DNA from: Cyanidioschyzon merolae
Lineage: Eukaryota
Reading direction: 5' to 3' (one strand)
DNA length: 64,000 nt
Assembly: GCA_000091205.1 (NCBI GenBank)
Contig: AP006501.2
How positions within the stretch are numbered: the stretch's first letter is position 1; the number at the start of each line of letters is the position of its first letter. Shown here piece after piece: positions 1 through 31,277 of this stretch. The notes beneath the pieces were generated by a model. The model was not told the origin of the DNA, made no database searches, and saw only the letters and a program-made list of their open reading frames with translations. The position numbers were made by a program, and so were the translations under genes.

Positions 1-680
1 GCGTTGCTCATTGGGAGGCGCCGTGAGAGGAGTATACCAAGTCCCGGTGGGCTCGTTTGCGAATGAATTTGTATTGTGGGAAGCATCGGGCATTCGCGAA
101 TTTTTTCAATCAACTGAGTGCCCTGAAGGAGAATCAAAGTGAGAGGTTGGTAGTGACGTACGGAGCAGGGCGCTGGATGACCCAAAAAGGAACTACGCCA
201 GCTCCAACGACGAGAACGTACAAGGAATGTGCAAGGCGTTTCGCTACGATGCCTGTAGATCGGTTCCGAACGTCCTATACACACCATGAACTGGGTTGTA
301 CACTACAGAGAGTCGAGATGGAAAAGTGCCAACGGAGCTTTGAGGACATAGCAAAGTACGGACCGATGACGGGGGAGCAAATGGAAACAAGGGCGAACGT
401 TCGTGGACTCCTTGCACTTGTTAGTACAGTCAATGGCAACGAAAAACGGATGGAGTATGTGAATCGTGACTTTAATGCCGCTCTCAATATAAGGAAATGT
501 GCGGTGCTGGAGAAAAGACCTCCAGAGTAGACAAGACGGAACTTTATCGGACAACCTCTCAAAGTCGAACTATATGAGAAAAAGTTGGAAGACGTAGTGG
601 GTGACCCGTCGAGAACGACTCGCAGCCGTCTGCACGTCAGTCGGACACGTCTTGTCCAAGGCGCAGTTGCTGCCACGACT
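1..680 (+). mobile_element. TnpB/Fanzor-like RuvC nuclease gene relic, copy A. Its 5' part is cut off by the window edge. ORF 57-530 is intact, and a frameshifted continuation runs to about 680.
   Basis: ORF 57-530 carries the TnpB/Cas12 'VDRFRTSYT' motif (compare VDPxyTSQTC), a degenerate zinc-finger region, and the RuvC-III motif 'NRDFNAALNIRK' (D-x-NAA-x-NI). After the stop, a +1 frame reads 'GQPLKVELYEKKLEDV', matching the C-terminal tails of copies B and C ('GHPLQLEVYTEKLKRTAG', 'GQPLRVEMYGEKVKSIAGG'). Confidence 0.5.
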
Positions 681-723
681 GTACACAGCCGGAAGCTGTG
701 ACTGAGATTACGCGAAAGCGCTC

Positions 724-1428
724 ATGGCGTCGACTGGATCTGCCCCTATTGAACACGCTCGGGAACCGTGTCCTGATCGGATTCTAGACGATGTCGGAGG
801 TGCGTTTTGCATGGGCGCCATCGGTGGTAGCATCTGGCACTTTGTAAAGGGCATGCGCAACTCCCCAAGGGGCCAGCGACTCCTGGGCAGCATCGACGCC
901 GTAAAGCTTCGCGCACCGACGCTCGGAGGCAGTTTTGCCGTCTGGGGCGGTCTTTTTTCCACTTTTGACTGTGCTATTGGCGGTCTACGCGGAGTCGAAG
1001 ACCCGTATAACGCCATCGCAAGCGGAGCGATCACCGGGGGTGTGCTCTCTGCGCGGAGCGGCCTCCGAGCGTCGGCACGCTCGGCGCTGATCGGTGGCGT
1101 CTTGCTAGCGATCATCGAAGGGCTCGGAATTATGTTGACCAGAATGACTGCGGAGATGGGCCCAACTCCGGAAGAGGTCGAGCGGATGCGGCGAGAGTTC
1201 GCGGAACAGCAGCATCGGCAGCGACTGGAAGGCGGTGCCGGTACCCGTACCGCCGACGGCTTTGCGGCTCCCGCTGATGAGCGTCTGGGCATGGGCGCGA
1301 ATGACGTCGTTTTGACAGAAAATTCTGGCGTTCGGGTCGGAGGCAGTGCGGACCCAAGCAGTCACAGTGGCCAGAACGAGCCTGAACGCCGCGGCGGTGG
1401 CTTTCTGCGTTCCCTTTTTGGTAGCTAG
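724..1428 (+). CDS. TIM17: Mitochondrial import inner membrane translocase subunit Tim17
   Basis: 234-aa ORF. Its N-terminus '[36 protein letters not shown]...[29 protein letters not shown]...[24 protein letters not shown]' fits the Tim17/Tim22/Tim23 family with typical Tim17 spacing. A Gly/Gln-rich C-terminal tail follows. Confidence 0.9.
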
Positions 1429-2782
1429 GGTGACTGCGCTCGACACATGATTGATTGCTTGGAGGTCATACCGATGCCAGGAAACAGTCCGATTGAATAG
1501 AGAAGCTGGCGGAGCGCCGCTCGCTTTCGTTGCATGAACGATTGCCTGTTCTGGTCACTGCTGCGATGCAAATCCAGTGAAACTTGTGCTTGGTTGACGG
1601 CCTTGCATGCGATGAGGCCCGGCGTGAAACGCATTTTGGCTCGAGCAGCCCGCGTAACGTCGTCAGGGTTTCGAACTAGAGCGCGCTCGTTATCGACCAA
1701 GCAGCTGGATGCCAAGCTCGTTACAGAAGCGAGCGATCACCACGCGAAAACATTAAGAAACCCGTTGTGTCGTTCAAGTAGACTCAGTCGTATTTCAGAA
1801 TACCGCTCGCATCTTGCGGCCTTCAGTACAAGATTGAGCGTCCCTTAGCACGGTGAACCCGCAAGATTTGCCTGCTGCGATGAAGGCCCGCAGTGCCTTT
1901 CATCTCCGCAAAACGCAAACGATAGACAGGAGACGCCCCAGCGGAATCAACCTCGAAGCCTGTCAACGCTGATGGACACGACTCATTTGGAGCAGCGACA
2001 CAGTGCACCTTGCGGGCCGGTGCCATTTGGCCTTTAGGGAAATCCAAAACGACTCGTCCAAAGCGCAAGATGCACCATCCAGCCGGCCAAGGCGTCAGCA
2101 GTTTGGACGGTACGTATGCCGGCCGTGGCTGCCCGGCACTCGCAAACCAGGTGCACACACTGGATTCGACGCCCGCGTGACCCTAACGAGGCCCCCAGAG
2201 CGGAGCCTACTGCAGCCAAGCCATCCAAGTAGCACTGCAACATTCGCCGATGCGCAAAAATGTGCCGCATTTGAACCCGGCACTCAGGTCGAGCGCTTGT
2301 GCAGGGCCTCGGCCGACTCCCCCGAGGGGGCAGGCTCCAGAATCGCCGCTCCAACGCAGCACTCGACCGAATGATACGCTATACGAGACTTGAGCTTTCC
2401 GCGTCGCTTTTGCACACGTGTTCTGGGCTGCTTGGAAGCGACCCCAGTTGCTCGACGACATGCCCCGGTGGATGCTGCTCAGCGCTGTGGCATCAGGTCG
2501 GATGCATCGCCAGCTCCTGAAACGATGCCACATGAGGGTGACCCATCAGAGCGGGAGCGATCGCTCTCCATCGCCGGACACCAGTCCCTGCGTCCATATA
2601 CGAATCTGAAAATGTTGGTCATACTGAGTCTCCGGGGCGACCAGGGTGCCGCACCTACAGCACAGCGGCTGCTCGCGCGACGTCATCATGTTCTGCTGCG
2701 GAGGCCGCGTTCCCGCTGGGCACCGACCGAGGTTCGCGAACGCGTAAAGCTGCCGTCCAGTGCCTATCGCTGACCGATAGCT

Positions 2783-5700
2783 TTAGACGGAACGCCCAAA
2801 CCAGTGACGACACCGACGCTGGAGCACTTGCAGCGCGTGCTCGTTCGTTGCACCCTCAGCCTCCGCAGCGATGATCAGGAGACGTTCGGCCAGATCAAGA
2901 ACGGCTTCACCGCAGCTCTCTCCGACTTGTGGCAAGTTGTGGCCAGTCAGGGGCCACGGACAGGCGTCTACCAACGCCGCAGAGCCTGTCCAAGCAACGT
3001 CCGGCGAATCAAGCATCGAACCTGCATCCTGGAGGAGATCATTCACGAGCACAGCGTCCGTGTAGAGCTCCCAGACGAGTTGCAAATCCACCGGCCGAAC
3101 GAGTTGCGTTGCGGTAACCGGCTGGATCAGTTCCTGTGCAGCAGCTGCGGGGCATGCGACACCAGCAAAGCCGTTCGCAAAAGCGAAAAGGTTCCGCTCT
3201 ACAATCAGGGTCAGACATTCCGCATCCAACGCATTGTGACGTTGCATCCGCCGCGACAAAGTGCGTTCCAGCGCCAGCATGGTATCGTAACGGAGGGTGC
3301 ATTCGAGTAACCGCACATAGAGCGCAAAACATCGAAACTGCCAGTACGCAAAGCAGTGGTTATCGTAGAGCAACGGTGCATGCGGCAACTGCTCCGGTGC
3401 TACCAGATACCGGTGGTTCCACATCAACCAAAAATAGCCGTGCCGCGAAGCGCTCGACGCATCCACACGAAACAACGGCTCCAGGGCAGTGATCGCTCGC
3501 GCAGCGTCCTGATAACCACAAAAGACGCCCAAGGCGTACAGGTAGGCACTGCGATACGACGGCAGCTCAGCAAGTTGCGTCAGCACAGACCCAAGCTCAT
3601 CGTTCGATCCATTCGACCTCGTCGACCGCGTCGTCGTCGTTCCAGGATGTGCGCTCTTCGAACTCGGGATCCAACCGAGCGCTTGGTAGAGCGCATTCGC
3701 CAGCACTGCGAGTCGGTACTCGAGCCACGGTGAGTACTGCAACTGGGCCTGGCCGTGCAGTTGCTGAGAAAGTCGCGGCAAAGCGTGTTCATAGCGCGCA
3801 AGTCGTTCGGCGATACGCTCGACACTGCTTGCGTACGACACGGGGGGCGCGGCTTCGCCAACCTCCCGTAACCATTGCCAGTAATCGAGCAGAAGCGCTA
3901 CTTCTGACTCCGCTGCTGGTGCGTCTTCCGCATCCGGGGTATCGTCTTTCCCGTGCGCTTGTTCCCGCAATGTGCACAGCAGGTTGGGCATGGAAGCACG
4001 CGCGGATTCAACTGCGCGCTTTGTATCCGGCGCAAGTGTATCCCAAGCAGCAGCCGGGATATGTATCGGAAGTAAGAGATAGGCACAGTAGAGTGCCTCC
4101 CAGTGAGCAGCAGTATGGACAGCGTGAGCGTTTGGTGTACGTTTTGCGCCCGTGGCGTGTCTGCATGAAACGGAAGCGGCTGCTTCAGGAGCCGACGCGT
4201 GTCCAGCGGTACCGCTGTGGCTCGTCATTATGATTACTGCATCCGGGGCGTGTTTGTTGCCACCAGACGCGATCGTCTGAACGCCCACAGCGAACCGATG
4301 TGCTGTGAGCAGCCACTCCACGTACCTGTGAAGACGAAAGCGGTTCGCGTTGCCAATAAGTTCCGCTGTTTCCAGTGAAAACTGTGCAGCATGACGCATA
4401 CAGGTCGCCAGTGCCAGTGTTAACTCGGAATCATCGAGTCGCGGACAGAGTGCGCGTCTGTCCTCGAGGTTTGATACTTCCGAGTTGCATGCGAGCTGCT
4501 GCTCGGTACGCTCAATCGTACCTTTGCCGGGATGATCAGCAACGATGCCAACAGCCGCGGTAGCAGCCTCAGAAGACGGAGCATCTATCGCAGAGGCAGA
4601 GGTATCTCGTGAAACAGCTTCCGGATCGACAGCCTCGACCGCTGCTACTCCTGCTTCGGATGCATTGCCCGAGCCGGTTGCTTTCCTTTGCGTTGCTGCC
4701 GCGGGAGCAGAAGCCGCTGTGCCCATTTCTGTAGCTGGCGTCGGGGCTGCGGCTGTCTCCGATGCTGTTTCCGTTGACGACTTGGCTGCACCGGGCGACT
4801 CGTGCCGTGTCGCCCGAAAATACGGGCTAATTCGTGGGGCTGGGTTGTCGGCCTCAGGGGACAACAGCCCCTGTAGGCGCTTCCGGCCAACACATCGTTC
4901 TTGCTGCGGAGCATCCTGCTTCAAAGCTGCCGATCCAATGAAGAAAGGAAGCAGCAACTCAATGAGTGTCTGAAGCGCGTCTAGCAGCTCGGTTGGTAGC
5001 AGTCGAGCCCGTCGCTCTGGTTCAGCCACTCTCTTGTACTCCAGGTCCAGGTACTCCATCTGCAGCCGGAAATGATACAGAAGCAGATCCCGATAACAGG
5101 GCAACAGATAGCGCTGCTCGATACCGCTTGCTGCTTGGATCAATTTCCCAGTCCATTGCCATAGCGTGCGAATACGGGGTCGTGAGCGACTCGCGAGCAC
5201 GTCGTCAAGTTCGGACTGACCGAGGGTCAGCGCCGGACAGAGCGCCTCCGGTGGAAGCACCATCTGCTCTGGACGCAGCGCTCTAGCCAAGGTCCATGCA
5301 CTGCAACTCGCTGCCACTGGTGGACCAGATTTCAGTCCGATCGCTGAGCAGTCTAGGCCATAAAGCACATGCAGGCATTGAATGCGCTCCCAGTCGAGAC
5401 GCGAAAACCAAGAAGGATCCCATTCCGGACTACACAGCGAACATCCAAGAAACCAACGCGCTCCTTGCTCTGCAGAGAGCCGCTCCCACAGCATTCCCGC
5501 ATAGAGCTGGTAAAGGAGGCTACAAGCCTGCCGCATTCGTTCGGAGGCTCTTCGTTCCATGGACAAGGCCGTCCCACGCTGTAGCCGCAGCGCCAAGCCG
5601 TGCAGAAGCTGATGCAGAAACGCACCGGCGGAGCAGCGAACAGCTTCATCCGAGTCTGAGAAAGCGTGCGTTCGGATGAAACGCTCTCGCCCAACAACAA

Positions 5701-8700
5701 AGAGACCAAACACTGCCGCCCATTCGACCAGGAGCTGATCATGCAGGTTTTGCTCAATGATCGACTCGGACGGGGCTACATCCCAGAGCAAGTCTAGGAT
5801 TCGCGGCAACGACACGCCGAGCATCTGATAGAGTTTGTGGCGCAGCTGAGCTGGCACCACGAGTGTCGCTTTCCCCAGGGCGTCAAGTTCCCGACGCAAG
5901 CTCTGCGCTAGAGCGGCTAGCTTTCGCCAGCGTGAAAGCGACGGCTCCCTACTGCGCTGGGCTTGCGCTTCCAATCGCGGAGACGAGTCCGGAGAGCGTG
6001 CAGTCGGAGCTGCAGACGCTGAAGCGGTTGCCGCCGTGACTCGCAACGTTACGCGCTGCAGCTCCTGCGCGGCAACGACTGCAGCACCGCCGGCATAGCG
6101 CGACAACAGCTGCCGCAATCTGACCTGAACAGTCTCGATTGGAAGATCCAAAAACGACAAGAGACGCATGAGCATCGCTTCCGAGTCCAGCATCTCGGTC
6201 TGAAACGTATCCTCGGAGGCGCCTAAACTCTTCCAGAGTTGTTCGAAGGCCGCATACTGGAGGCATCGAAGCAGGTCTATCTTGCCTAGGTGCAGCGATG
6301 TTTCTTCGGGGAGAGCGGCGTGCTCGAGGAGCTGATCCGGATGCAAGCCCGCCATCCAGCTGCATAGCACCTGGCATGCACTCGTTGCCTCCGGTCCGTT
6401 CTCCGCTGCAGTCGATGCGGAAACGCTACGGCAGCGCTCCTGTGCTCGACACGCCTCAGCGGATGCCAGCTGGGAAGCGTTCCCCGATGCCTCTGGCAAC
6501 TCCAGCAGTGCAGTGGATGCTGACGCTCGCCGGCGCAAGCGCCAGGCGCGCAGCAGCCTCTCGACTGGAGCATCGCTCTCCGTTACAGACATATCCTCGC
6601 AGAGCGGCGAGGTATCCTCGAAAACAAGTGCGTGTGTGGCTGTCGTCCCTGTGACAGGTGCAACCGTGTTCCTGCACCCCAGCGAAACAGACCCCTGAAT
6701 GGCTGTTTCCGTCCTTGCCGGATATTTCCCCGATGCTCGCCCGAAACGCTCCGTTGCTGCGTCATTTTGCAGCGCGTGTGCAGTGTCATCTGCAGTGTCT
6801 TTGGGATGCACTTCATCCGCTACGAACTGGCCTGCGGCGTGCCGCGGAACGGATATCTGCGACACCGATACCCCCGCAGCTGTGCTCTCATTCGCTTTGC
6901 TGGGTTCAGTCTGGTATTCTGCTTCCATGCTTGCTGCGATCGTGCATTCATTGTATCCGCTGGATGCTTGCAAAGCCTCTCTCTCAGCACAGGCTGACTG
7001 CTGACTGGTTGGCGGCTCCTGTGGCGACACCGATACCCGCTGAAGGCGCCCTGATGTACAACGTTTCCCTGCACTGTCCACGAAATGCGCTTCAGAAACG
7101 GTCGTATGATCACGTTGCAGGCGCTGAACATCTTCCCAGAGCGCGAGCGCTCTCTTGAGCGCATCCATCGCAGCGTTCCAATGCTTTTGCCGCAGCAAGT
7201 TCAGGGCGTGCAGGTACATGTACCGAATGAGCAACAGCATACGGATCGTGCTTGAAGGCAACAGGCCCTCCCGCATATAACCATCAAAGCAGGCTCGCGT
7301 CCTTGTGAGGACGTCGTCCACCAGTGACCAGTCTCCCGCCCAGAACGCAACCTCCAGGAGCGCTAGGCTACGCCACATCCATACCAGCCACCAGTGAGCG
7401 CGTTCCTCTTGTGGTATCGCGCTAGACGCTGGCGTGCCTAGCACGAACGACCCGGTACCGTTCGGATGCCAACTGATCCATAAATGATAAAGGCGACAGA
7501 GCTTTCGCGCTAGCGTCGTACGCATTCGCACTGGAATCGTCATCATTCGATCAAGTGCTTCGCCTAGTATTCGGTTCACGAGCGTTGTAAGCGGCAGAAG
7601 CGACTCGTGGAACTGAAAAGGCGCTCCCACGGAGCGCACAGCGTCGATGATTGTTGCGTTAGCTACCCGAGCTGTGGGCGTCTCTTGAACAGACTCGATC
7701 ACTTGTGCTGCCTGTGATGATGAAGCCGGATTCTGCTGCTCGGTAGCATCGTAGTCACGCAAGGCGTCGTGCAGCTGGCAACGCAGCTGTTCTAGAACTG
7801 CTGCTGCCTCTGGTGTTGCAGTTGCAGAAGCCGCATCTTGGTCGTTGGATGGCAGCAAACGCGATGCTGGTGCCGCTCCGTTGGCACCTGCGCCTCCGGG
7901 AATCTCACCAGCTGATATTCCTGCAATAATCATGGAACGTGGGACTGAAGAACTTCTAAGCGAAGCCTCTGTCTCGTACCGAAGAGACCGACGCGTTCTA
8001 CGGGCAGGTGACTCGCTTTCCGCAGTGGAAACACCAGCGCGGTTTGGCTCTGAACAAGTTTCCCCCGAACGGGAGCTTCGCGCCGGAGGCACCGTCGCCA
8101 CCGCCACCACCTGAGGGTCGCTCTCTACGCCGCCTCCTTGACACGTGGAGCATATTCCCCGTTGCTGCTGCTGCTGCTGCTGCATTGCTTCGTTCACCGT
8201 GACTGCAGCCGTTGCACTAGCAGCTCGACCGCGTGTCGAGGCCGTCAATGACGTCACAGGGTCACTGGTTGTACCACGAGTCGATTCGCATGCCGTTCGT
8301 TTCGAATGCTTGTGTTCCACTGGCTGCCGCTCTGCCGCTTCTGAGCCTTCCCTGGGTGATTCGCTAGCACCAGATGCACGGAGCTTGTTCGGTAACTTGG
8401 TCACTATCGCTTTCTTTGACGTTAATCCAGGCGCCGACTCTTGCGCCTCGGCCGGAACGCATGCACCTGCACGAAGCATGCCGCTATCCACCCGTTCTGA
8501 CACGCCTTCCTGCACGAACGAAGAAGATTCCGTCGTTGTCCGCATCACAGTAGCCACTCTTCCCGCCACCTGTTCAAAGGATGCAGCATCATCACCAACA
8601 CCACTAGACGGAAGCGCTGCAGCTCCTACACTAGAGAGCGGGGAGCGTCGAGCATCCGTTACGTGCCCGTGCGCGCCTTTGGCAGAAAAAGATGCTGCGG

Positions 8701-9991
8701 TTTCGCGTTCATCCCGTATGAACACATTGGCGGTGAGCAGCGGCTCTGCTGTATCCATTGCAAGACGCTTGTGTACCAATTGATCCACTTGATCGACTAC
8801 ATCGAAAACCAGTGCTCCGTCGTCATCCATTGGTATGATAGACAACACCGACGACTGCGACGATTCAGTTGCCTTCTCGCCCTGTGATTGTCGACGCCTC
8901 GTTCCTGCTGCCTCGCTTTCCAGCGTTTCATGCCGGCGTTTTCGTCGCCACGCCGCACTGCTCGCATGCGCTAGACAAGTAACTAGTCGTCGGTGCAGCT
9001 GTCTAAAAAGAATATTCCAGGCTGGCAGCGCCTTCTCGCTCTGACGCAGCAGTGCACGCGTCTGGCGCAGGGCGAAACAACACGCGCCTCGATACCCTGC
9101 AGCTTCAGCAGTAGCTGCGGCCTTCAGCCACAACAGCACGGTTTTCGGTTGGTAGTGCGTTGCCTTCGCGTACGCTTCGAAGGCTGCTGCGGGTTCACCG
9201 ATCCGTTCGTATACTTGTCCCAGGCTCCAGGCGCTCAGGTAACCTAGCCGCTTGATCCACGGGGCATCTCCCCGCTGCGGTCGGGAACTTGCCGACTCCA
9301 ACTTTTGTTGCTCAGCGAGCAGTCGCAAGACTCGTTCAAAACCGCTCGCTGCCTCGCTGAAACGTCCGTCTGCGAAAGCCTCGGCAGCTTGCGAGTATAG
9401 CCCTCGTAGTTCCGGCTCTAGCGGGAGTTTGGACGCAGGTTGATCACGTGTTACTTTGCTGGTTGCTTTCTCAGTTGATTCAATAGCAGATGCTGGCGCA
9501 AACCCCAGCATCTTCACACCCTGAGCCTTGTCAAGTCCAGTGAAGAGTGCGCGGGAACAACACGGCGTCGGTTTTTTTAATGGTGCGCACGAGCTATCAA
9601 CGTTTCGCTTTTTTTCGTTCTTCCGTGGACTCGGTTCAGATGAAAACGGAACCCTGAAGAGCGCGCTCGATTCGTTCATGCCGTCTTTCTTCCCCGGGAT
9701 TTTGGTACCTGTAAAGACTTGATATTCAATGAGCAGCATAGGAAGGTTTGCGGACTCATAGATTGGACTTGGATTCTCGGGCGTGTTTTCAGTTTGGCTG
9801 TTTCGACTTGCCGCCGCTGGGACATGAACGGTTCGCATCATCACGATGATTTGCGACGACCTCGAGCAACAGTTCGCAAAATACCCGAGCTTGTTATCGA
9901 TTCCATACATGGAAACGCCACTGTTCTCGCTTCGCTCTCCATAATATCCTCGAACCTGGTACGCCTCACCTGCTGGATCTTCAATCACCAA
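2783..9991 (-). CDS. Giant 2402-aa protein, low-complexity (Ala/Ser/Gln-rich) with N-terminal TPR-like repeats. It may be an HIR3/CABIN1-like scaffold, but identity is unresolved.
   Basis: One uninterrupted 7.2-kb ORF. TPR-like segment 'WSLGQVYERIGEPAAAFEAYAKATHYQPKTVLLWLKAAATAEAAG'. A polyQ run is encoded by (CTG)n at 8163-8185. The first ~118 codons lie inside the duplicated segment 9636-10958. Confidence 0.55.
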   Translation of the reverse strand: MVIEDPAGEAYQVRGYYGERSENSGVSMYGIDNKLGYFANCCSRSSQIIVMMRTVHVPAAASRNSQTENTPENPSPIYESANLPMLLIEYQVFTGTKIPGKKDGMNESSALFRVPFSSEPSPRKNEKKRNVDSSCAPLKKPTPCCSRALFTGLDKAQGVKMLGFAPASAIESTEKATSKVTRDQPASKLPLEPELRGLYSQAAEAFADGRFSEAASGFERVLRLLAEQQKLESASSRPQRGDAPWIKRLGYLSAWSLGQVYERIGEPAAAFEAYAKATHYQPKTVLLWLKAAATAEAAGYRGACCFALRQTRALLRQSEKALPAWNILFRQLHRRLVTCLAHASSAAWRRKRRHETLESEAAGTRRRQSQGEKATESSQSSVLSIIPMDDDGALVFDVVDQVDQLVHKRLAMDTAEPLLTANVFIRDERETAASFSAKGAHGHVTDARRSPLSSVGAAALPSSGVGDDAASFEQVAGRVATVMRTTTESSSFVQEGVSERVDSGMLRAGACVPAEAQESAPGLTSKKAIVTKLPNKLRASGASESPREGSEAAERQPVEHKHSKRTACESTRGTTSDPVTSLTASTRGRAASATAAVTVNEAMQQQQQQQRGICSTCQGGGVESDPQVVAVATVPPARSSRSGETCSEPNRAGVSTAESESPARRTRRSLRYETEASLRSSSVPRSMIIAGISAGEIPGGAGANGAAPASRLLPSNDQDAASATATPEAAAVLEQLRCQLHDALRDYDATEQQNPASSSQAAQVIESVQETPTARVANATIIDAVRSVGAPFQFHESLLPLTTLVNRILGEALDRMMTIPVRMRTTLARKLCRLYHLWISWHPNGTGSFVLGTPASSAIPQEERAHWWLVWMWRSLALLEVAFWAGDWSLVDDVLTRTRACFDGYMREGLLPSSTIRMLLLIRYMYLHALNLLRQKHWNAAMDALKRALALWEDVQRLQRDHTTVSEAHFVDSAGKRCTSGRLQRVSVSPQEPPTSQQSACAEREALQASSGYNECTIAASMEAEYQTEPSKANESTAAGVSVSQISVPRHAAGQFVADEVHPKDTADDTAHALQNDAATERFGRASGKYPARTETAIQGSVSLGCRNTVAPVTGTTATHALVFEDTSPLCEDMSVTESDAPVERLLRAWRLRRRASASTALLELPEASGNASQLASAEACRAQERCRSVSASTAAENGPEATSACQVLCSWMAGLHPDQLLEHAALPEETSLHLGKIDLLRCLQYAAFEQLWKSLGASEDTFQTEMLDSEAMLMRLLSFLDLPIETVQVRLRQLLSRYAGGAAVVAAQELQRVTLRVTAATASASAAPTARSPDSSPRLEAQAQRSREPSLSRWRKLAALAQSLRRELDALGKATLVVPAQLRHKLYQMLGVSLPRILDLLWDVAPSESIIEQNLHDQLLVEWAAVFGLFVVGRERFIRTHAFSDSDEAVRCSAGAFLHQLLHGLALRLQRGTALSMERRASERMRQACSLLYQLYAGMLWERLSAEQGARWFLGCSLCSPEWDPSWFSRLDWERIQCLHVLYGLDCSAIGLKSGPPVAASCSAWTLARALRPEQMVLPPEALCPALTLGQSELDDVLASRSRPRIRTLWQWTGKLIQAASGIEQRYLLPCYRDLLLYHFRLQMEYLDLEYKRVAEPERRARLLPTELLDALQTLIELLLPFFIGSAALKQDAPQQERCVGRKRLQGLLSPEADNPAPRISPYFRATRHESPGAAKSSTETASETAAAPTPATEMGTAASAPAAATQRKATGSGNASEAGVAAVEAVDPEAVSRDTSASAIDAPSSEAATAAVGIVADHPGKGTIERTEQQLACNSEVSNLEDRRALCPRLDDSELTLALATCMRHAAQFSLETAELIGNANRFRLHRYVEWLLTAHRFAVGVQTIASGGNKHAPDAVIIMTSHSGTAGHASAPEAAASVSCRHATGAKRTPNAHAVHTAAHWEALYCAYLLLPIHIPAAAWDTLAPDTKRAVESARASMPNLLCTLREQAHGKDDTPDAEDAPAAESEVALLLDYWQWLREVGEAAPPVSYASSVERIAERLARYEHALPRLSQQLHGQAQLQYSPWLEYRLAVLANALYQALGWIPSSKSAHPGTTTTRSTRSNGSNDELGSVLTQLAELPSYRSAYLYALGVFCGYQDAARAITALEPLFRVDASSASRHGYFWLMWNHRYLVAPEQLPHAPLLYDNHCFAYWQFRCFALYVRLLECTLRYDTMLALERTLSRRMQRHNALDAECLTLIVERNLFAFANGFAGVACPAAAAQELIQPVTATQLVRPVDLQLVWELYTDAVLVNDLLQDAGSMLDSPDVAWTGSAALVDACPWPLTGHNLPQVGESCGEAVLDLAERLLIIAAEAEGATNEHALQVLQRRCRHWFGRSV

Positions 9992-25427: not shown

Positions 25428-26183
25428 TTGAACGATTTCGGAGCTGTTCAACGGGGGAACGGTGAGGAGTTAGCGTCGCGGTTGCACACGCCGGTCAGCT
25501 GCACTTTTTGCACGCGCAGCGTAAACCCCGTGTCGCCCGGTTCCCAGAGACGGTTTTGGACCGAACTTATGGCCGCAGACTCCACTGAATCCAGCGACTT
25601 TGCTGTCATACCCTTTGGATCCGAGTACTTGCATTTTTTTGCGGTGAAGACGCTGATCGACGGCTTGCTGAGCGAGCCTTACTCCACGTTCACCTACCGG
25701 TACTTTCTACGCCAATGGAGCGAACTGTGTTTCCTAGCGGTTCGGAAACTTCCGCATGCTGCATCGTGTACACCGCTCCGATCTGAGGATTTGTTCGGTT
25801 GCATCATTGGCAAGGCAGAGGTGCACAGAGACTCGCTCCGCGGATATATTGCAATGATTGCCGTCGACATGACGCATCGTCGACGCGGTCTAGGCACATT
25901 ACTCGTACAGCGAACGCTGCAAGCCATGCAAGAGCGAGGATGTGATGAGGTAGTCCTCGAAACTGAAGTAACGAATCACTCCGCGCTACGAATGTATGAG
26001 AAGCTAGGCTTCTTGCGCGACAAGCGTCTCGAACGGTACTACTTGAACGGATCGGATGCGTTTCGACTGCGCCGCCGCCTGGTGCCGCTGCCGATGCCCA
26101 ACATCGACTCACCAGCACCCCAGCTGCCATTGAATCAGAAAACGTCGGAACCCGAGAGAATCACCGAAAGCTACTCTGATTGA
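25428..26183 (+). CDS. NAA30: N-alpha-acetyltransferase 30 (NatC catalytic subunit, MAK3-like), GNAT fold
   Basis: 'GYIAMIAVDMTHRRRGLGTLLVQRTLQAMQERGCDEVVLETEVTNHSALRMYEKLGFLRDKRLERYYLNGSDAFRL' shows GNAT motifs A and B with the MAK3/NAA30-type Q/RxxGxG/A. Confidence 0.8.
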   Translation: MNDFGAVQRGNGEELASRLHTPVSCTFCTRSVNPVSPGSQRRFWTELMAADSTESSDFAVIPFGSEYLHFFAVKTLIDGLLSEPYSTFTYRYFLRQWSELCFLAVRKLPHAASCTPLRSEDLFGCIIGKAEVHRDSLRGYIAMIAVDMTHRRRGLGTLLVQRTLQAMQERGCDEVVLETEVTNHSALRMYEKLGFLRDKRLERYYLNGSDAFRLRRRLVPLPMPNIDSPAPQLPLNQKTSEPERITESYSD

Positions 26184-26505: not shown

Positions 26506-26810
26506 GTCATAGCGTTATCACCAACGCGATGCAGCCCACAAAGTTCTATTTGATGACATTTCACGTTGCGGAGTATATCTGCAGATGGCTTGTACGTGTG
26601 CGCATGTGCACATGTACATGCATCTACATTGGCATTACCGATTGTCATAGCGTTATTACCAACGCGATGCAACCTAGAAAGTTCTATTTGATGACATTTC
26701 ACGTTGCGGTGGATACCTGTGGATAGCTCATGCATGCATGCATGCATCATTGCATGTGTCCATGCGTGCACGCGCACGCATCTCCTTGGCGGCGGCGGCG
26801 GCGGCAATGA
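26506..26810. repeat. Composite repeat: an ~85-bp core present twice (26506-26590 and 26644-26728, period 138 bp), followed by (CATG)n and (GGC)6 microsatellites
   Basis: Direct read: 'gtcatagcgttatcaccaacgcgatgcagcccacaaagttctatttgatgacatttcacgttgcgg...' is repeated. Then 'catgcatgcatgcatgcat' and 'ggcggcggcggcggcggc'. Confidence 0.85.
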
Positions 26811-26910: not shown

Positions 26911-28992
26911 GTGCGAGCTCGAGTGGCAAACTGTCGCGTTCGTTGCTTTTCAGCCTTGCGATTCCGTTCTTCAGGAATTCATTCATCCAGAGCCATTGCC
27001 TCGAACAGGCAACCTATGAAAGAAGCAAAGCTCATGGCGGGTGAAGTACTCGAGCGCTGGCCGGAGCCGACCTCTCTTCATGCACTCGTTGAGCGGCTGT
27101 TCGTCGAGCTCTTTAGATATGGCTCTTTATCAGCAATCGCGTTTCATTTCGACTTCAGTCTTGGAGTTCTGGAGCTGCACTGGCGCACAATCCCCGATAC
27201 GAACGCGGCACCGTCGCTTGACGTGAAGGATTGGCTCACGAACTGCTGCACGAGAACGGTTTTGGCTGCTTCTAGCCTGCGGATAGAGGGTGTATTCGCT
27301 CACCGTCCGATTATACGTCGCCAGCTCGAAGCGCAAGCCGGTCGGCTAGCCTCAGAATTGCTTTCGACCGTGTTGCGTCCGTGGGCTGCCCTATACGTAA
27401 ACGTCTCGTGGGAGGTAGCTCTCATGGGAAGCGGCACTCTCGCCTTTGCGCGGCACTTCAGATGGGATAATCCGAATGACGAGGCAGCATCCGAGCAGCC
27501 ATGGCTCCATCGAATGCGCCAATTGCTGAACGAAACAGCGGCTGTTGTGCGGTTTTCCACACACGTCATCGCGGGGAACTTGCCCGCGAGCCCGATGCCA
27601 TCAAGATCGGCATCGGGTGAATGGCATCTTGCTCTGGTCCACGGCTTCCGCCAATGCTGTTGGATCTTTGGCTGGAACGGGCGACCGTTGAAGATCGACA
27701 TCGAATGTCTGCAGCGGACGCTCGGCGTTCCGCATCGCGAGCAGCTTGCTTGCGGCATTGCACAGTGGCGTGACGGAAACGCTACATGGGGAGCATTCCA
27801 GGCAGATGGCTTCGATCATGCCCGAACAGCGGACTGCTGGTTGTGCAGTGGCCCAGCCGAATCATGCGAAGTGTTCCAAGCACTTCAGTTAAAGCTACGA
27901 GAACTCTTGGGGGTAAGCACCTCCACGTTGCAAACGGATTCGGTCTGGGGTAGCGTGCGCGAGCAAGCGCTGGCCAGTATCACTGCGTCTCGGCGGTCGT
28001 GCCAGCGACACGATGTCGTGCCGTCAACCGCGTCACTCCGCGATCCCGTACTCGCAGATGGCATTACGTCGACGACCCGCGCGCTGGCATTCTCCGAGAC
28101 CCTCGGCCGACCGCGAACGCCGCCAAGCCGATGCCGCACGCGTCCTTGCACGCGAGATACGTCGAACTTTCCGCCGTCGCTGAGCGTCTTCACGACGCGC
28201 GCCCTTGAGCGCCTACAGCCGGGCTGGGAGAGCGACCTCTACGGGGCGCAGGGACACTGCCCTGTGCCGATCCTCCCCGACCTTGACAATGCGCGCGTTG
28301 ATCCCACAGCTGCCAGAACGGCGGTCCAACTCCACGCCCGTGAACTTGAAGATGCAGTTGTCGTCGGTCAATTTGATGCCAAATTCATTGTGTTCCGAGT
28401 GCGCTCTGAAATTTTTCTATTGGATCAACACGCAGCGGATGAGCGGGCTCGTTTCGAGCAACTCACGCAGATGTATCAAGAGTCACTGGACCCCCGGAAG
28501 TACCCAACTGCTCTGAATCGCAGCGTTTCTCTTCGGGTCCCGTTGCTTGTCGATCTCGGTTCTCGTTGCCTATCTGCAACGACATGTGCATTCCTGCGGC
28601 ATTTTGGATGGTCCTGGGATGAAGCCTCATCCGAAAAGCCAATAGATACGCATATAGCGAGCACAGCTATCGCTGGTACTGAGCACCGATCGACTCTTCG
28701 AGTTCGCAGTGTGCCAAGCGTTCTCGGTCAGCAGCCGCTCCTCCAAGCTTCAGATCTGCTCGAGTGCATTGACTTGATGTTGGAAACGGATCACGCGGTT
28801 AGCATGGTACCTGCTGCACAGCGAGTCCTCGAAACGCTTGCTTGTCGTCACGCCATCATGTTCGGTGACCGTTTGGATCTCGCAGCCTGCCAACAGCTTT
28901 TGAAGCGTTTATCGAAATGCAGGTTGCCTTTCCAGTGCGCCCATGGGCGACCTTCGGTAGCTGCTCTGAGCTGCCCGAGGCGACCCCGGTGA
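26911..28992 (+). CDS. MutL-homolog C-terminal endonuclease domain protein (PMS1/PMS2/MLH3 type). No GHKL ATPase domain is recognisable in the 693-aa ORF.
   Basis: Endonuclease motifs are intact: 'DQHAADERARFEQL' (DQHAx2Ex4E), 'ACRHAIMFGDRL' (ACR/SCK motif), 'CAHGRPS' (CPHGRP), preceded by 'VVVGQFDAKFIVF'. The N-terminal 450 aa lack 'ELVENSLDA', 'DNGxGI' and 'GFRGEAL'. Confidence 0.75.
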   Translation: MRARVANCRVRCFSALRFRSSGIHSSRAIASNRQPMKEAKLMAGEVLERWPEPTSLHALVERLFVELFRYGSLSAIAFHFDFSLGVLELHWRTIPDTNAAPSLDVKDWLTNCCTRTVLAASSLRIEGVFAHRPIIRRQLEAQAGRLASELLSTVLRPWAALYVNVSWEVALMGSGTLAFARHFRWDNPNDEAASEQPWLHRMRQLLNETAAVVRFSTHVIAGNLPASPMPSRSASGEWHLALVHGFRQCCWIFGWNGRPLKIDIECLQRTLGVPHREQLACGIAQWRDGNATWGAFQADGFDHARTADCWLCSGPAESCEVFQALQLKLRELLGVSTSTLQTDSVWGSVREQALASITASRRSCQRHDVVPSTASLRDPVLADGITSTTRALAFSETLGRPRTPPSRCRTRPCTRDTSNFPPSLSVFTTRALERLQPGWESDLYGAQGHCPVPILPDLDNARVDPTAARTAVQLHARELEDAVVVGQFDAKFIVFRVRSEIFLLDQHAADERARFEQLTQMYQESLDPRKYPTALNRSVSLRVPLLVDLGSRCLSATTCAFLRHFGWSWDEASSEKPIDTHIASTAIAGTEHRSTLRVRSVPSVLGQQPLLQASDLLECIDLMLETDHAVSMVPAAQRVLETLACRHAIMFGDRLDLAACQQLLKRLSKCRLPFQCAHGRPSVAALSCPRRPR

Positions 28993-29456: not shown

Positions 29457-31277
29457 CTATCTCCGTCCGTGCAAAAGCGCCAAAACAACGCGGCGCATTT
29501 TTTCATACGCTACCTCAATATCATCATTCACAATACGTAAATCGAAACCTGTAATTTTCTCAGCGATATCCATTTCCTGGCGGGCGGCCTCCAGGCGCCG
29601 ATCGAGTTCCGAGGGACTCTCGGTCTCGCGCCGCCGGAGTCGCTGCTCGAGCTCCATCAGCGAGGGCGGTGCAATCCAGATATAGAACGCATCCAATTCC
29701 TGTCGATCCATCATGGTTTGTGCACCCTGCAAATCCAGACTCAGAATGCAAACTCGAGGCGATGGCGATTGCGTAACAGCTCGCACAGCACCAAACGTCG
29801 TCCCGTAGTAGTTGCCGTAAACGCAGGCATATTCGATGAATTTGCCTGCGGCGACATCCGCCAAAAAATTTTCCTTCGACACGAAATGGTAAGACACACC
29901 GTCAACTTCTCCTGGACGCGGCGCTCGCGTTGTTGTCGATACCGAATAGCCCAGATGGTTCGGAAACTCTGCTAGAAGCCGCCCTATGAGCGTCGACTTG
30001 CCCACCCCAGAAGGGCCAGTTACCACAATGGCGGTTACAGCAGGCGGATTTCGCGCCAAATCTGGCAAGTTGCGGGCGCTGCGTGCAGCGCGTCGCGACG
30101 CCACGTCATGGTTGGAGGCGTATTCTGCGTGCTGTGATGCTGCATTGCGCGCTGCGCTCGCTGGTGCGATGCGTGCTGCCTCTGCATAGTCACGTATGGA
30201 AACATACCATAGGGGTATCTTGTACGAGAGAAACCCCAAGATGCATGAAAAGACCTGACTCGATGTCAGCGTGCCTCGCTGCGATAGCACGAGGCTCAGG
30301 ATTGCCACCATGGGCGCCGCATAGCGCGCAGCAGAGAAGACGGACACCGCGCGTGGCTGCTCGGTGGTACTCGCTGGAGCTGCCGCAGCGCCAGCCAGAT
30401 CAGTGGATCCAGCGATGGGCTGCAGGCGATCAACGGATCGCTGTAATAAGCGAAGATAGAGGACGCCAGCCGATGAGCCAGCCGCAAAAGCGAGAGCGTC
30501 GGCGATTCCCGCGCGCAGGAAACAAACACAGACGCCAATGCCGGACGTAACGAGTGTGCCCTGCAGGAGCCACCTCTTCAATTTCTGGTACTCTTGCAGG
30601 CCTTGGTCGCGCTCGGCGATCATCTCTGGGCTCAGCGGTGCGCTCCTAGCGGGTGGCGGAAGCGCCTCTAACGTCCACACTCGGTTCTGTGGGTCATACG
30701 CTACTCTGTCGCATACGACGATTTCGGTGCTCGTGCGCCATACTGTTTTTCGATTCGAACTCTCGATGAACTTGTTGGTATCGCCGACGCGTTCTAATGG
30801 CTTTATATCTGTAATAACCTGGACAGAGTTCGCACGTGGTGTGACGCCCTCCACAACGCCTATGAGACGCTCCTCTCGCCATCTGCCTGGATAGAGCACA
30901 ATATCTCCAACCTGTGGATCGTTACGTATCGCGTTCGCAGCGTTGTCTTGCTGCGCTGTCAACATCCGACTGGTGCTGTGTGGGGCTGCTTCCTGAGCGC
31001 CTCGCTGAAGCAGGCGAACTTGAGGGGCTCGCAGCTGGGCTCTCCGGCTTCTACAACCTAGCGCTGGACGCCGACTGGTGCTTTCACTGCGTCGTTTTTC
31101 GGAAGCGCGTCGCCTCAGCGAGTGGTCAGTCACCCGGCACGCTGTCGAGCGCAGCAAGGGCACGAAACTGAAAGTTGAGCGCGGTGGTCCACGGTGTGCT
31201 GGGTACCGCCTTCGTTCAACGCGACGCCCAAGTCCCCAAGGCGGTGACTCGTATAGTCGCCGTACGTTCGGTGACAT
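29457..31277 (-). CDS. Guanylate kinase (C-terminal ~200 aa) fused to an N-terminal extension of about 400 aa that contains predicted transmembrane segments
   Basis: GK motifs 'IVVTGPSGVGKSTLIGRLL', 'YSVSTTTRAPRPGEVDGVSYHFVSKENF', 'GKFIEYACVYGNYYGTT', 'ILSLDLQGAQTM'. The extension holds hydrophobic stretches 'LVTSGIGVCVCFLRAGIADALAFAAG' and 'PMVAILSLVLSQRG...VFSCILGFLSYKIPLWYV'. Confidence 0.85.
   Translation of the reverse strand: MSPNVRRLYESPPWGLGRRVERRRYPAHRGPPRSTFSFVPLLRSTACRVTDHSLRRRASEKRRSESTSRRPALGCRSRRAQLRAPQVRLLQRGAQEAAPHSTSRMLTAQQDNAANAIRNDPQVGDIVLYPGRWREERLIGVVEGVTPRANSVQVITDIKPLERVGDTNKFIESSNRKTVWRTSTEIVVCDRVAYDPQNRVWTLEALPPPARSAPLSPEMIAERDQGLQEYQKLKRWLLQGTLVTSGIGVCVCFLRAGIADALAFAAGSSAGVLYLRLLQRSVDRLQPIAGSTDLAGAAAAPASTTEQPRAVSVFSAARYAAPMVAILSLVLSQRGTLTSSQVFSCILGFLSYKIPLWYVSIRDYAEAARIAPASAARNAASQHAEYASNHDVASRRAARSARNLPDLARNPPAVTAIVVTGPSGVGKSTLIGRLLAEFPNHLGYSVSTTTRAPRPGEVDGVSYHFVSKENFLADVAAGKFIEYACVYGNYYGTTFGAVRAVTQSPSPRVCILSLDLQGAQTMMDRQELDAFYIWIAPPSLMELEQRLRRRETESPSELDRRLEAARQEMDIAEKITGFDLRIVNDDIEVAYEKMRRVVLALLHGRR

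Follow-up and report, generated by a model that had tools for sequence, protein, structure and literature searches.

A probable, divergent MLH3 with an intact endonuclease domain and a predicted pseudo-ATPase domain in Cyanidioschyzon merolae

The gene and its domains

The DNA analyzed here, referred to as the window, is a stretch of 64,000 nucleotides (nt) from the Cyanidioschyzon merolae contig AP006501.2 (assembly GCA_000091205.1). It is eukaryotic and gene-dense, has a G+C content of about 54% and is built of long uninterrupted open reading frames (ORFs). One of these, located at 26911-28992 on the plus strand, opens at a GTG codon and encodes 693 amino acids (aa). An earlier note made from the sequence had described it as a MutL-type endonuclease domain without an ATPase domain, either an extremely divergent MLH3/PMS-type subunit or a stand-alone nuclease with a novel N-terminal region. 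We consider it quite probable that the gene is the C. merolae ortholog of MLH3, which would act together with MLH1 as a MutL-gamma-type nuclease subunit and combine an intact endonuclease C-terminal domain (CTD) with a pseudo-ATPase N-terminal domain (NTD). On this reading, the protein is a highly divergent MLH3 subunit and not a stand-alone nuclease, in line with the first of the two possibilities.

The ORF is real and uninterrupted, but its GTG start is an artefact of bacterial-style ORF calling. The translation of 27016-28989 matches the deposited C. merolae 10D protein XP_005539060.1/BAM83024.1 at 100%, and the ATG at 27016 lines up with the start of the ortholog from Cyanidiococcus yangmingshanensis (M1 and E3 are invariant). 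The in-frame extension 26911-27015 is absent from the deposited proteins of both C. merolae and Cyanidiococcus. Translation probably begins at this ATG (27016), which yields a protein of 658 instead of 693 aa; the residue numbers of the earlier note are consequently off by 35. The following features were assigned, with residues counted from this ATG:

27016..28992, plus strand: coding sequence of the MLH3 ortholog, 658 codons and stop, single exon; identity to the deposited protein and start alignment
27058..27720, plus strand: predicted degenerate MutL NTD (shrunken GHKL and transducer subdomains), aa ~15-235
27076..27117, plus strand: helix LHALVERLFVELFR where GHKL motif I (ELVENSLDA) would lie, aa 21-34; modeled secondary structure, correspondence by eye
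27292..27321, plus strand: VFAHRPIIRR, putative relic of the MutL motif 'LFxNxPxRxK' at the junction of ATPase and transducer, aa 93-102; two comparisons in the same register
27661..27687, plus strand: WIFGWNGRP, possible relic of the transducer motif 'LFVNGR', aa 216-224; by eye, in a region of low model confidence (predicted local distance difference test, pLDDT)
27721..28185, plus strand: poorly conserved and probably disordered linker, aa 236-390; 28.6% identity to Cyanidiococcus
28186..28290, plus strand: conserved pre-CTD motif TTRALERLQPGWESDLYGAQGHCPVPILPDL, aa 391-425, 35 aa; 58.8% identity to Cyanidiococcus
28291..28989, plus strand: MutL C-terminal dimerization/endonuclease domain of MLH3 type, aa 426-658; Pfam, PDB and relatives
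28423..28458, plus strand: DQHA(x)2E(x)4E metal-binding motif DQHAADERARFE, aa 470-481; alignment of 21 CTDs
28840..28848, plus strand: ACR motif, aa 609-611; alignments
28936..28953, plus strand: CAHGRP motif within PFQCAHGRPS, aa 641-646; common to MLH3-type CTDs

The gene is already annotated in the databases, where XP_005539060.1 appears as 'similar to DNA mismatch repair protein', and MLH3 is already listed for C. merolae. Indeed, Mlh1, Mlh2, Mlh3, Pms1, Msh4 and Msh5 were recorded as present in Cyanidioschyzon (Malik et al., 2008; PMC2488364); the supplement of that study gives no accession for C. merolae Mlh3, which may correspond to the gene described here. Apart from the protein itself, a word-indexed homolog search with the full-length sequence retrieved a single bacterial MutL.

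The C-terminal endonuclease domain

All MutL endonuclease signatures that had been reported near the C-terminus are found. The subgroup of MutL proteins with endonuclease activity (PMS1/PMS2, MLH3 and most bacterial MutL) is marked by the metal-binding motifs DQHA(x)2E(x)4E, ACR/SCK and C(P/N/A)HGRP, and the C. merolae protein has all three. A Pfam scan of the protein returned MutL_C (PF08676) as the sole family (E=1.5e-12, 47.8 bits, cut-off 25), and a dimerization-type motif, QFDAKFIV, occupies aa 452-459 in addition to DQHAADERARFE, ACR and CAHGRP. In the 21-CTD alignment, DQHA(A/V)(D/H)ER....E, ACR and CAHGRP are invariant among MLH3-type sequences, while 'AIMFGD' and 'PFQCAHGRPS' set MLH3-type CTDs apart from bacterial MutL, which exhibits 'CPHGRP'. 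At the level of the alignment, the CTD retains every residue of the MutL endonuclease metal site together with the MLH3-type signature, and metal-dependent nicking by C. merolae MLH3 is predicted from these motifs.

Among solved structures, the closest to the CTD is that of yeast Mlh3 (6shx/6rmn; E=3.8e-14, 55 bits), with the CTDs of yeast Pms1 (E=3.5e-8, 35 bits) and of bacterial MutL ranking below it. A search with the CTD only identified 68 relatives, and all of the named ones are MLH3. On this similarity ranking, the CTD is nearer to MLH3 than to PMS1, PMS2, MLH1 or MLH2 and is of MLH3 type. The ranking also bears on a PMS1/PMS2-type (MutL-alpha) identity, in which the protein would be the main mismatch-repair nuclease instead of MLH3. 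PMS1 and PMS2 carry the same endonuclease motifs, and the best structural matches of the NTD model described below are the NTDs of Pms1 and PMS2; this second ranking is unable to discriminate between PMS and MLH3 because no MLH3 NTD is among the solved structures retrieved by a MutL-NTD query. What speaks against a PMS-type subunit, and renders it very improbable, is the higher bit score to yeast Mlh3, the naming of all close CTD relatives as MLH3 and the presence of the CAHGRP and AIMFGD signatures common to MLH3-type CTDs, where the aligned Pms1 CTDs share CPHGRP with bacterial MutL. Moreover, a separate Pms1 was listed in Cyanidioschyzon by Malik et al. (PMC2488364).

The N-terminal region and its conservation

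In agreement with the earlier note, none of the GHKL ATPase motifs precedes the CTD. Regular-expression scans for E...N..D, D.G.G, G..G.[GA] and GFRGE were negative over the first 445 aa of both the C. merolae and the Cyanidiococcus protein, and all of the scanned motifs were recovered from a bacterial MutL control. The ATP-binding motifs I-IV (ExxxNxxD, DxGxG, the GxxGxG/GFRGEAL lid and GT-x-V) are thereby missing from this region in both orthologs. Pfam returned no family for the N-terminal part at E<=10, including HATPase_c_3 and DNA_mis_repair. When the N-terminal 445 aa were compared exhaustively by phmmer with 1.84 billion representative proteins, the only sequences retrieved were those from Cyanidioschyzon and Cyanidiococcus (34% identity); as Cyanidiococcus is the sole relative found in this way, a deep NTD alignment cannot be built. 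Similarly, a metagenome scan for remoter relatives yielded C. merolae-like contigs only.

This isolation in sequence space is what would be expected if the protein were a stand-alone MutL-CTD nuclease whose N-terminal 440 aa form a novel domain unrelated to MutL, and profile comparisons are likewise compatible with such a domain in that their similarity to MutL NTDs is non-significant. A profile of the three red-algal NTDs matched the yeast Pms1 NTD (3h4l) in the PDB at E=0.59, and hhalign against a profile of 121 bacterial MutL NTDs gave a local match at P=0.051, both non-significant; the global and alternative hhalign alignments were uninformative. The two matches agree in register, placing LRIEGVFAHRPIIRRQL on the MutL segment 'GT.V.V.dLFyNtPaRrKFL'. 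Since column shuffles equaled the hhalign score in 11 of 200 cases, the sequence homology of the NTD is suggestive. Further resemblances were noted by eye. The WIFGWNGRP segment is kept in both genera and lies 125 aa past VFAHRPIIRR, compared with 114 aa in a bacterial MutL. In C. merolae only, 'KLMAGEVLER..P.TSLHALVER' is collinear with MutL 'kIAAGEVVeRPasVVKELVEN'. Alignment by hmmalign to a hidden Markov model (HMM) of the MutL NTD was unstable and put 'KLMAGEVLER' on MutL 'KIAAGEVV', a placement that is suggestive and is not conserved in Cyanidiococcus.

The predicted fold gives a different picture. Residues 1-255 were modeled with AlphaFold2 from an alignment of three red-algal sequences only and without templates. 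The resulting model has a predicted template modeling score of 0.62 and a mean pLDDT of 61, with values mostly between 70 and 90 at aa 15-170 and below 50 past aa 174. Its best structural matches are the NTDs of Pms1 and PMS2, followed at lower ranks by GyrB, ParE, topoisomerase II, Topo VI-B, Hsp90 and MORC, a model-based ranking that follows the relatedness expected within the GHKL superfamily. In a Foldseek search, all 21 matches at E<=1e-3 were Pms1, PMS2 or MutL NTDs (best 1.5e-5). A separate AlphaFold2 model of the full-length protein is poor (mean pLDDT 43), yet the same NTD fold families were recovered from it; its CTD is too weak to separate Mlh3 from Pms1 structurally.

The predicted structure thus identifies the N-terminal 235 aa as a shrunken MutL NTD in which the GHKL/transducer fold is kept and all four Bergerat ATP-binding motifs are gone. 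A novel domain is refuted, as far as prediction allows, by this GHKL-like fold and is considered highly unlikely; the earlier suggestion of a novel N-terminal region, unrelated to the GHKL domain, gives way accordingly to a remote GHKL fold. The description of the protein as lacking an ATPase domain was correct in that no ATP-binding motif survives, but the domain itself is, by prediction, still present in a degenerate form. In the model, a helix at aa 21-34 is followed by a hairpin at 38-58, a loop of 20 residues, strands at 80-91, helices at 98-126 and strands at 131-150. In the first helix, placed by eye at motif I, the Mg-binding Asn is not conserved and no E...N pattern is present. The predicted NTD is about 50-100 residues shorter than a canonical one, and the missing part is apparently the ATP-lid region. 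In the topology of E. coli LN40, about 85 residues separate the motif-II strand from the 'GT.V.V' strand, a segment in which helix B, the ATP lid and the GFRGEAL helix are normally located along with two or three strands. Compared with this topology, the segment would have collapsed from about 85 to about 25 residues.

The locus leaves no space for a canonical ATPase domain elsewhere. The gene upstream is NAA30 (PDB 7mx2 match, E=5e-42), which ends at 26183, and the interval between the two genes contains the following feature:

26506..26810, no strand assigned: non-coding intergenic repeat block, two copies of a 101-nt direct repeat followed by CATG-rich and GGC-rich runs

The direct repeats span 26506-26744, with two copies 138 nt apart that are 83% identical, and are followed by a palindromic run of (CATG)n type and by a (GGC)6 run; no further copy of the 101-nt repeat occurs within the window. 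The six-frame translations of the window (64 kb) and of the Cyanidiococcus locus (18 kb) were searched at maximum sensitivity with an HMM of the MutL NTD (121 bacterial sequences) and gave no match, and hence no hidden exon supplies a canonical ATPase domain. The statement of the earlier note that there is no room for an upstream exon is confirmed.

Gene order around the locus is shared with Cyanidiococcus and comprises NUDIX, NAA30, the MLH3 gene, guanylate kinase/CGL160, Nop and UCH. Both orthologous ORFs are intact and encode 658 aa in C. merolae and 654 aa in Cyanidiococcus, with 40.6% identity in the NTD core and 57.3% in the CTD. Four-fold degenerate sites are 33% identical between the genera compared with 25% expected from base composition, and neutral sites are therefore essentially saturated. 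As the degenerate NTD and the nuclease domain are conserved despite this saturation, both appear to be under purifying selection, which argues for a gene that is not a pseudogene. Within the linker, the comparison with Cyanidiococcus contains 39 gapped columns, and pLDDT is below 40. The pre-CTD motif that follows is conserved as strongly as the catalytic domain and could be linked to no known motif or function. It recurs in L008, a high-GC contig from another sample which probably represents a third cyanidialean relative. In this contig, a 308-aa MutL_C ORF (131-1057, plus strand) opens at LLPRWTNPCFGAHPHLPPVDIL, matching the pre-CTD motif of the window, and lies beside a guanylate-kinase/CGL160 gene (1109-2920, minus strand) in the same arrangement as in the window. 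An in-frame stop codon is found upstream of this ORF and the contig ends 130 nt further on, so that the NTD is beyond view.

Metagenome contigs carry the same protein with 4-6 substitutions, and all 10 full-length variants examined, taken from a cluster of 35 members, are intact and diverge at no more than 5-6 residues. Between the window and the metagenome alleles, 4 non-synonymous and 4-8 synonymous changes were counted, which are too few to test the ratio of non-synonymous to synonymous substitution rates and show no excess of replacements. One further variant (P0003), encoded by a JGI metagenome contig of 1637 bp, is 268 aa long and fuses residues 1-211 in frame with residues 598-658 (window positions 27016-27648 and 28807-28989). 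The intervening residues, which comprise the remainder of the NTD, the whole linker and the greater part of the CTD, are missing, either because the allele carries a deletion or because the contig was misassembled.

These data are relevant to the view that the gene is a decaying relic, i.e., an MLH3 that is losing its function in a lineage without meiosis and whose NTD degeneracy reflects erosion. C. merolae is not known to have a sexual cycle, and the large in-frame deletion of P0003 would fit such a scenario. So would the loss of ATP motifs that are essential for the function of yeast Mlh3 (PMC3538346). Against decay stand the intact ORFs of nearly equal length in two genera with saturated synonymous sites, the identities of the NTD core and the CTD between these genera, the retention of every catalytic residue and the lack of disruption in any of the 10 full-length metagenomic variants; the allele changes, though too few for a test, show no excess of replacements. 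A decaying relic is therefore considered unlikely.

Elsewhere in the window, positions 29457-31277 on the minus strand encode a guanylate kinase domain that is preceded, in the same protein, by a CGL160_C-like domain at the N-terminus; CGL160 is the family of a chloroplast ATP-synthase assembly factor, and the same fused architecture is present in Cyanidiococcus (L006) and in contig L008. An uninterrupted ORF of 2402 aa (2783-9991, minus strand) matches no Pfam family at E<=1e-5. MLH1 is not encoded within the window.

Proposed function and comparison with known systems

In the prevailing view, both subunits of a MutL heterodimer must bind and hydrolyze ATP to drive the complex. The C. merolae MLH3 would be unable to bind or hydrolyze ATP, and its NTD may function as a passive structural module in clamp closure with MLH1, in DNA binding or in partner contacts. 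In this case, MLH1 would supply all nucleotide-dependent switching, which would be an extreme form of the known asymmetry of MutL ATPase sites, while DNA nicking would fall to the CTD, as it does in other MutL-gamma complexes. By analogy with the family, the protein might help to resolve meiotic crossovers together with MSH4-MSH5, contribute in a minor way to mismatch repair, or do both; the heterodimer with MLH1 and the action in crossing over with MSH4-MSH5 are both predictions made by analogy. We tentatively propose that Cyanidioschyzon and Cyanidiococcus possess a naturally ATP-blind MLH3, and with it a MutL-gamma with a single active ATPase (MLH1), in which the NTD is selected purely as a structural, clamp-forming or DNA-binding module.

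Several points weigh against the interpretation as an MLH3 ortholog with a pseudo-ATPase NTD. No sexual cycle is known in C. merolae. Sequence-profile support for NTD homology alone is not significant (P ~0.05; shuffles 11/200). The fold was assigned from models built on very shallow alignments, with the low pLDDT values given above (mean 61; <50 past aa 174), and the residues that would replace E29, N33 and D58 (E. coli numbering) were matched by eye and not by superposition. The orthology to MLH3 as opposed to PMS1 follows from a similarity ranking and not from a phylogeny, and the scope of the analysis is this gene, with the MLH1 partner and the other MutL members of C. merolae outside it. 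Finally, an MLH3 that functions without ATP binding would contradict the best-studied precedent: the yeast mutants mlh3-N35A, A41F, G63R and K80E have a null phenotype in crossing over as well as in mismatch repair, and for this reason a selected MLH3 without ATP-binding residues is unexpected (PMC3538346). On the other side of the balance, the ATPase sites of MutL heterodimers are asymmetric (PMC3538346), and a human PMS2 variant that binds but does not hydrolyze ATP stays repair-proficient (PMC9034662).

If an ATP-blind MLH3 is indeed present in these algae, ATP binding by the nuclease subunit, although essential in yeast Mlh3, would not be universal for MutL-gamma. A conserved MLH3 that keeps the fold without the nucleotide motifs would be a natural test of which functions of the NTD depend on ATP, and at about 235 aa it would provide a compact MutL NTD. 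C. merolae is genetically tractable via homologous recombination. The gene also bears on whether C. merolae retains a working class-I crossover machinery. A full-text literature search, incomplete in its coverage, revealed no description of a degenerate MLH3 ATPase domain.

Among known systems, MLH3 of S. cerevisiae, human and plants exhibits the same order of NTD, disordered linker and CTD, shares the DQHA(x)2E(x)4E, ACR and C(A)HGRP motifs as well as the 'PFQCAHGRPS' and 'AIMFGD' signatures in the CTD, and provides the top sequence match among both solved structures and named database proteins. In contrast to these proteins, the predicted NTD of C. merolae comprises about 235 instead of about 330-350 aa, is undetectable by HMMER or Pfam and lacks the GHKL ATP-binding motifs required in yeast Mlh3 (PMC3538346). 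Yeast PMS1 and human PMS2 retain all ATP-binding motifs in their NTDs (3h4l, 1h7s) and bind ATP, and their CTDs are less similar to the C. merolae protein than that of Mlh3. Bacterial MutL (B. subtilis, Aquifex, Neisseria) shares the metal-site motifs of the CTD and, by the prediction made here, the NTD fold, but forms homodimers with two active ATPase sites and has CPHGRP instead of CAHGRP and a canonical NTD.

Short entries named 'MLH3' from oomycetes and metagenomes, which contain MutL_C only, likewise look like MutL CTDs without an ATPase domain. The closest CTD relative outside the cyanidialean sequences, P0020 (35% identity, 391 aa; L007, 935-2110, plus strand), starts only 162 nt downstream of a RING-finger gene that shares its strand (3-773), and about 170 non-MutL residues precede its CTD. 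It may be a genuinely NTD-less MLH3-like eukaryotic gene or a gene with an intron. At the Pythium brassicae locus (L014), no upstream match of HATPase_c_3 type was found. The idea that CTD-only MLH3 proteins are common was rejected for Phytophthora citrophthora, the sole oomycete case that was settled: at its locus (L013, 1300-7147, plus strand), the model that lies upstream of the 346-aa entry named 'MLH3' carries HATPase_c_3 in a fusion with a protein kinase, and an ORF at 4485-4733 encodes GTKIAVANLFSKLPVRSKDL. The short P. citrophthora entry is an annotation artefact that stems from a split gene model, whereas the C. merolae gene is a complete single ORF.

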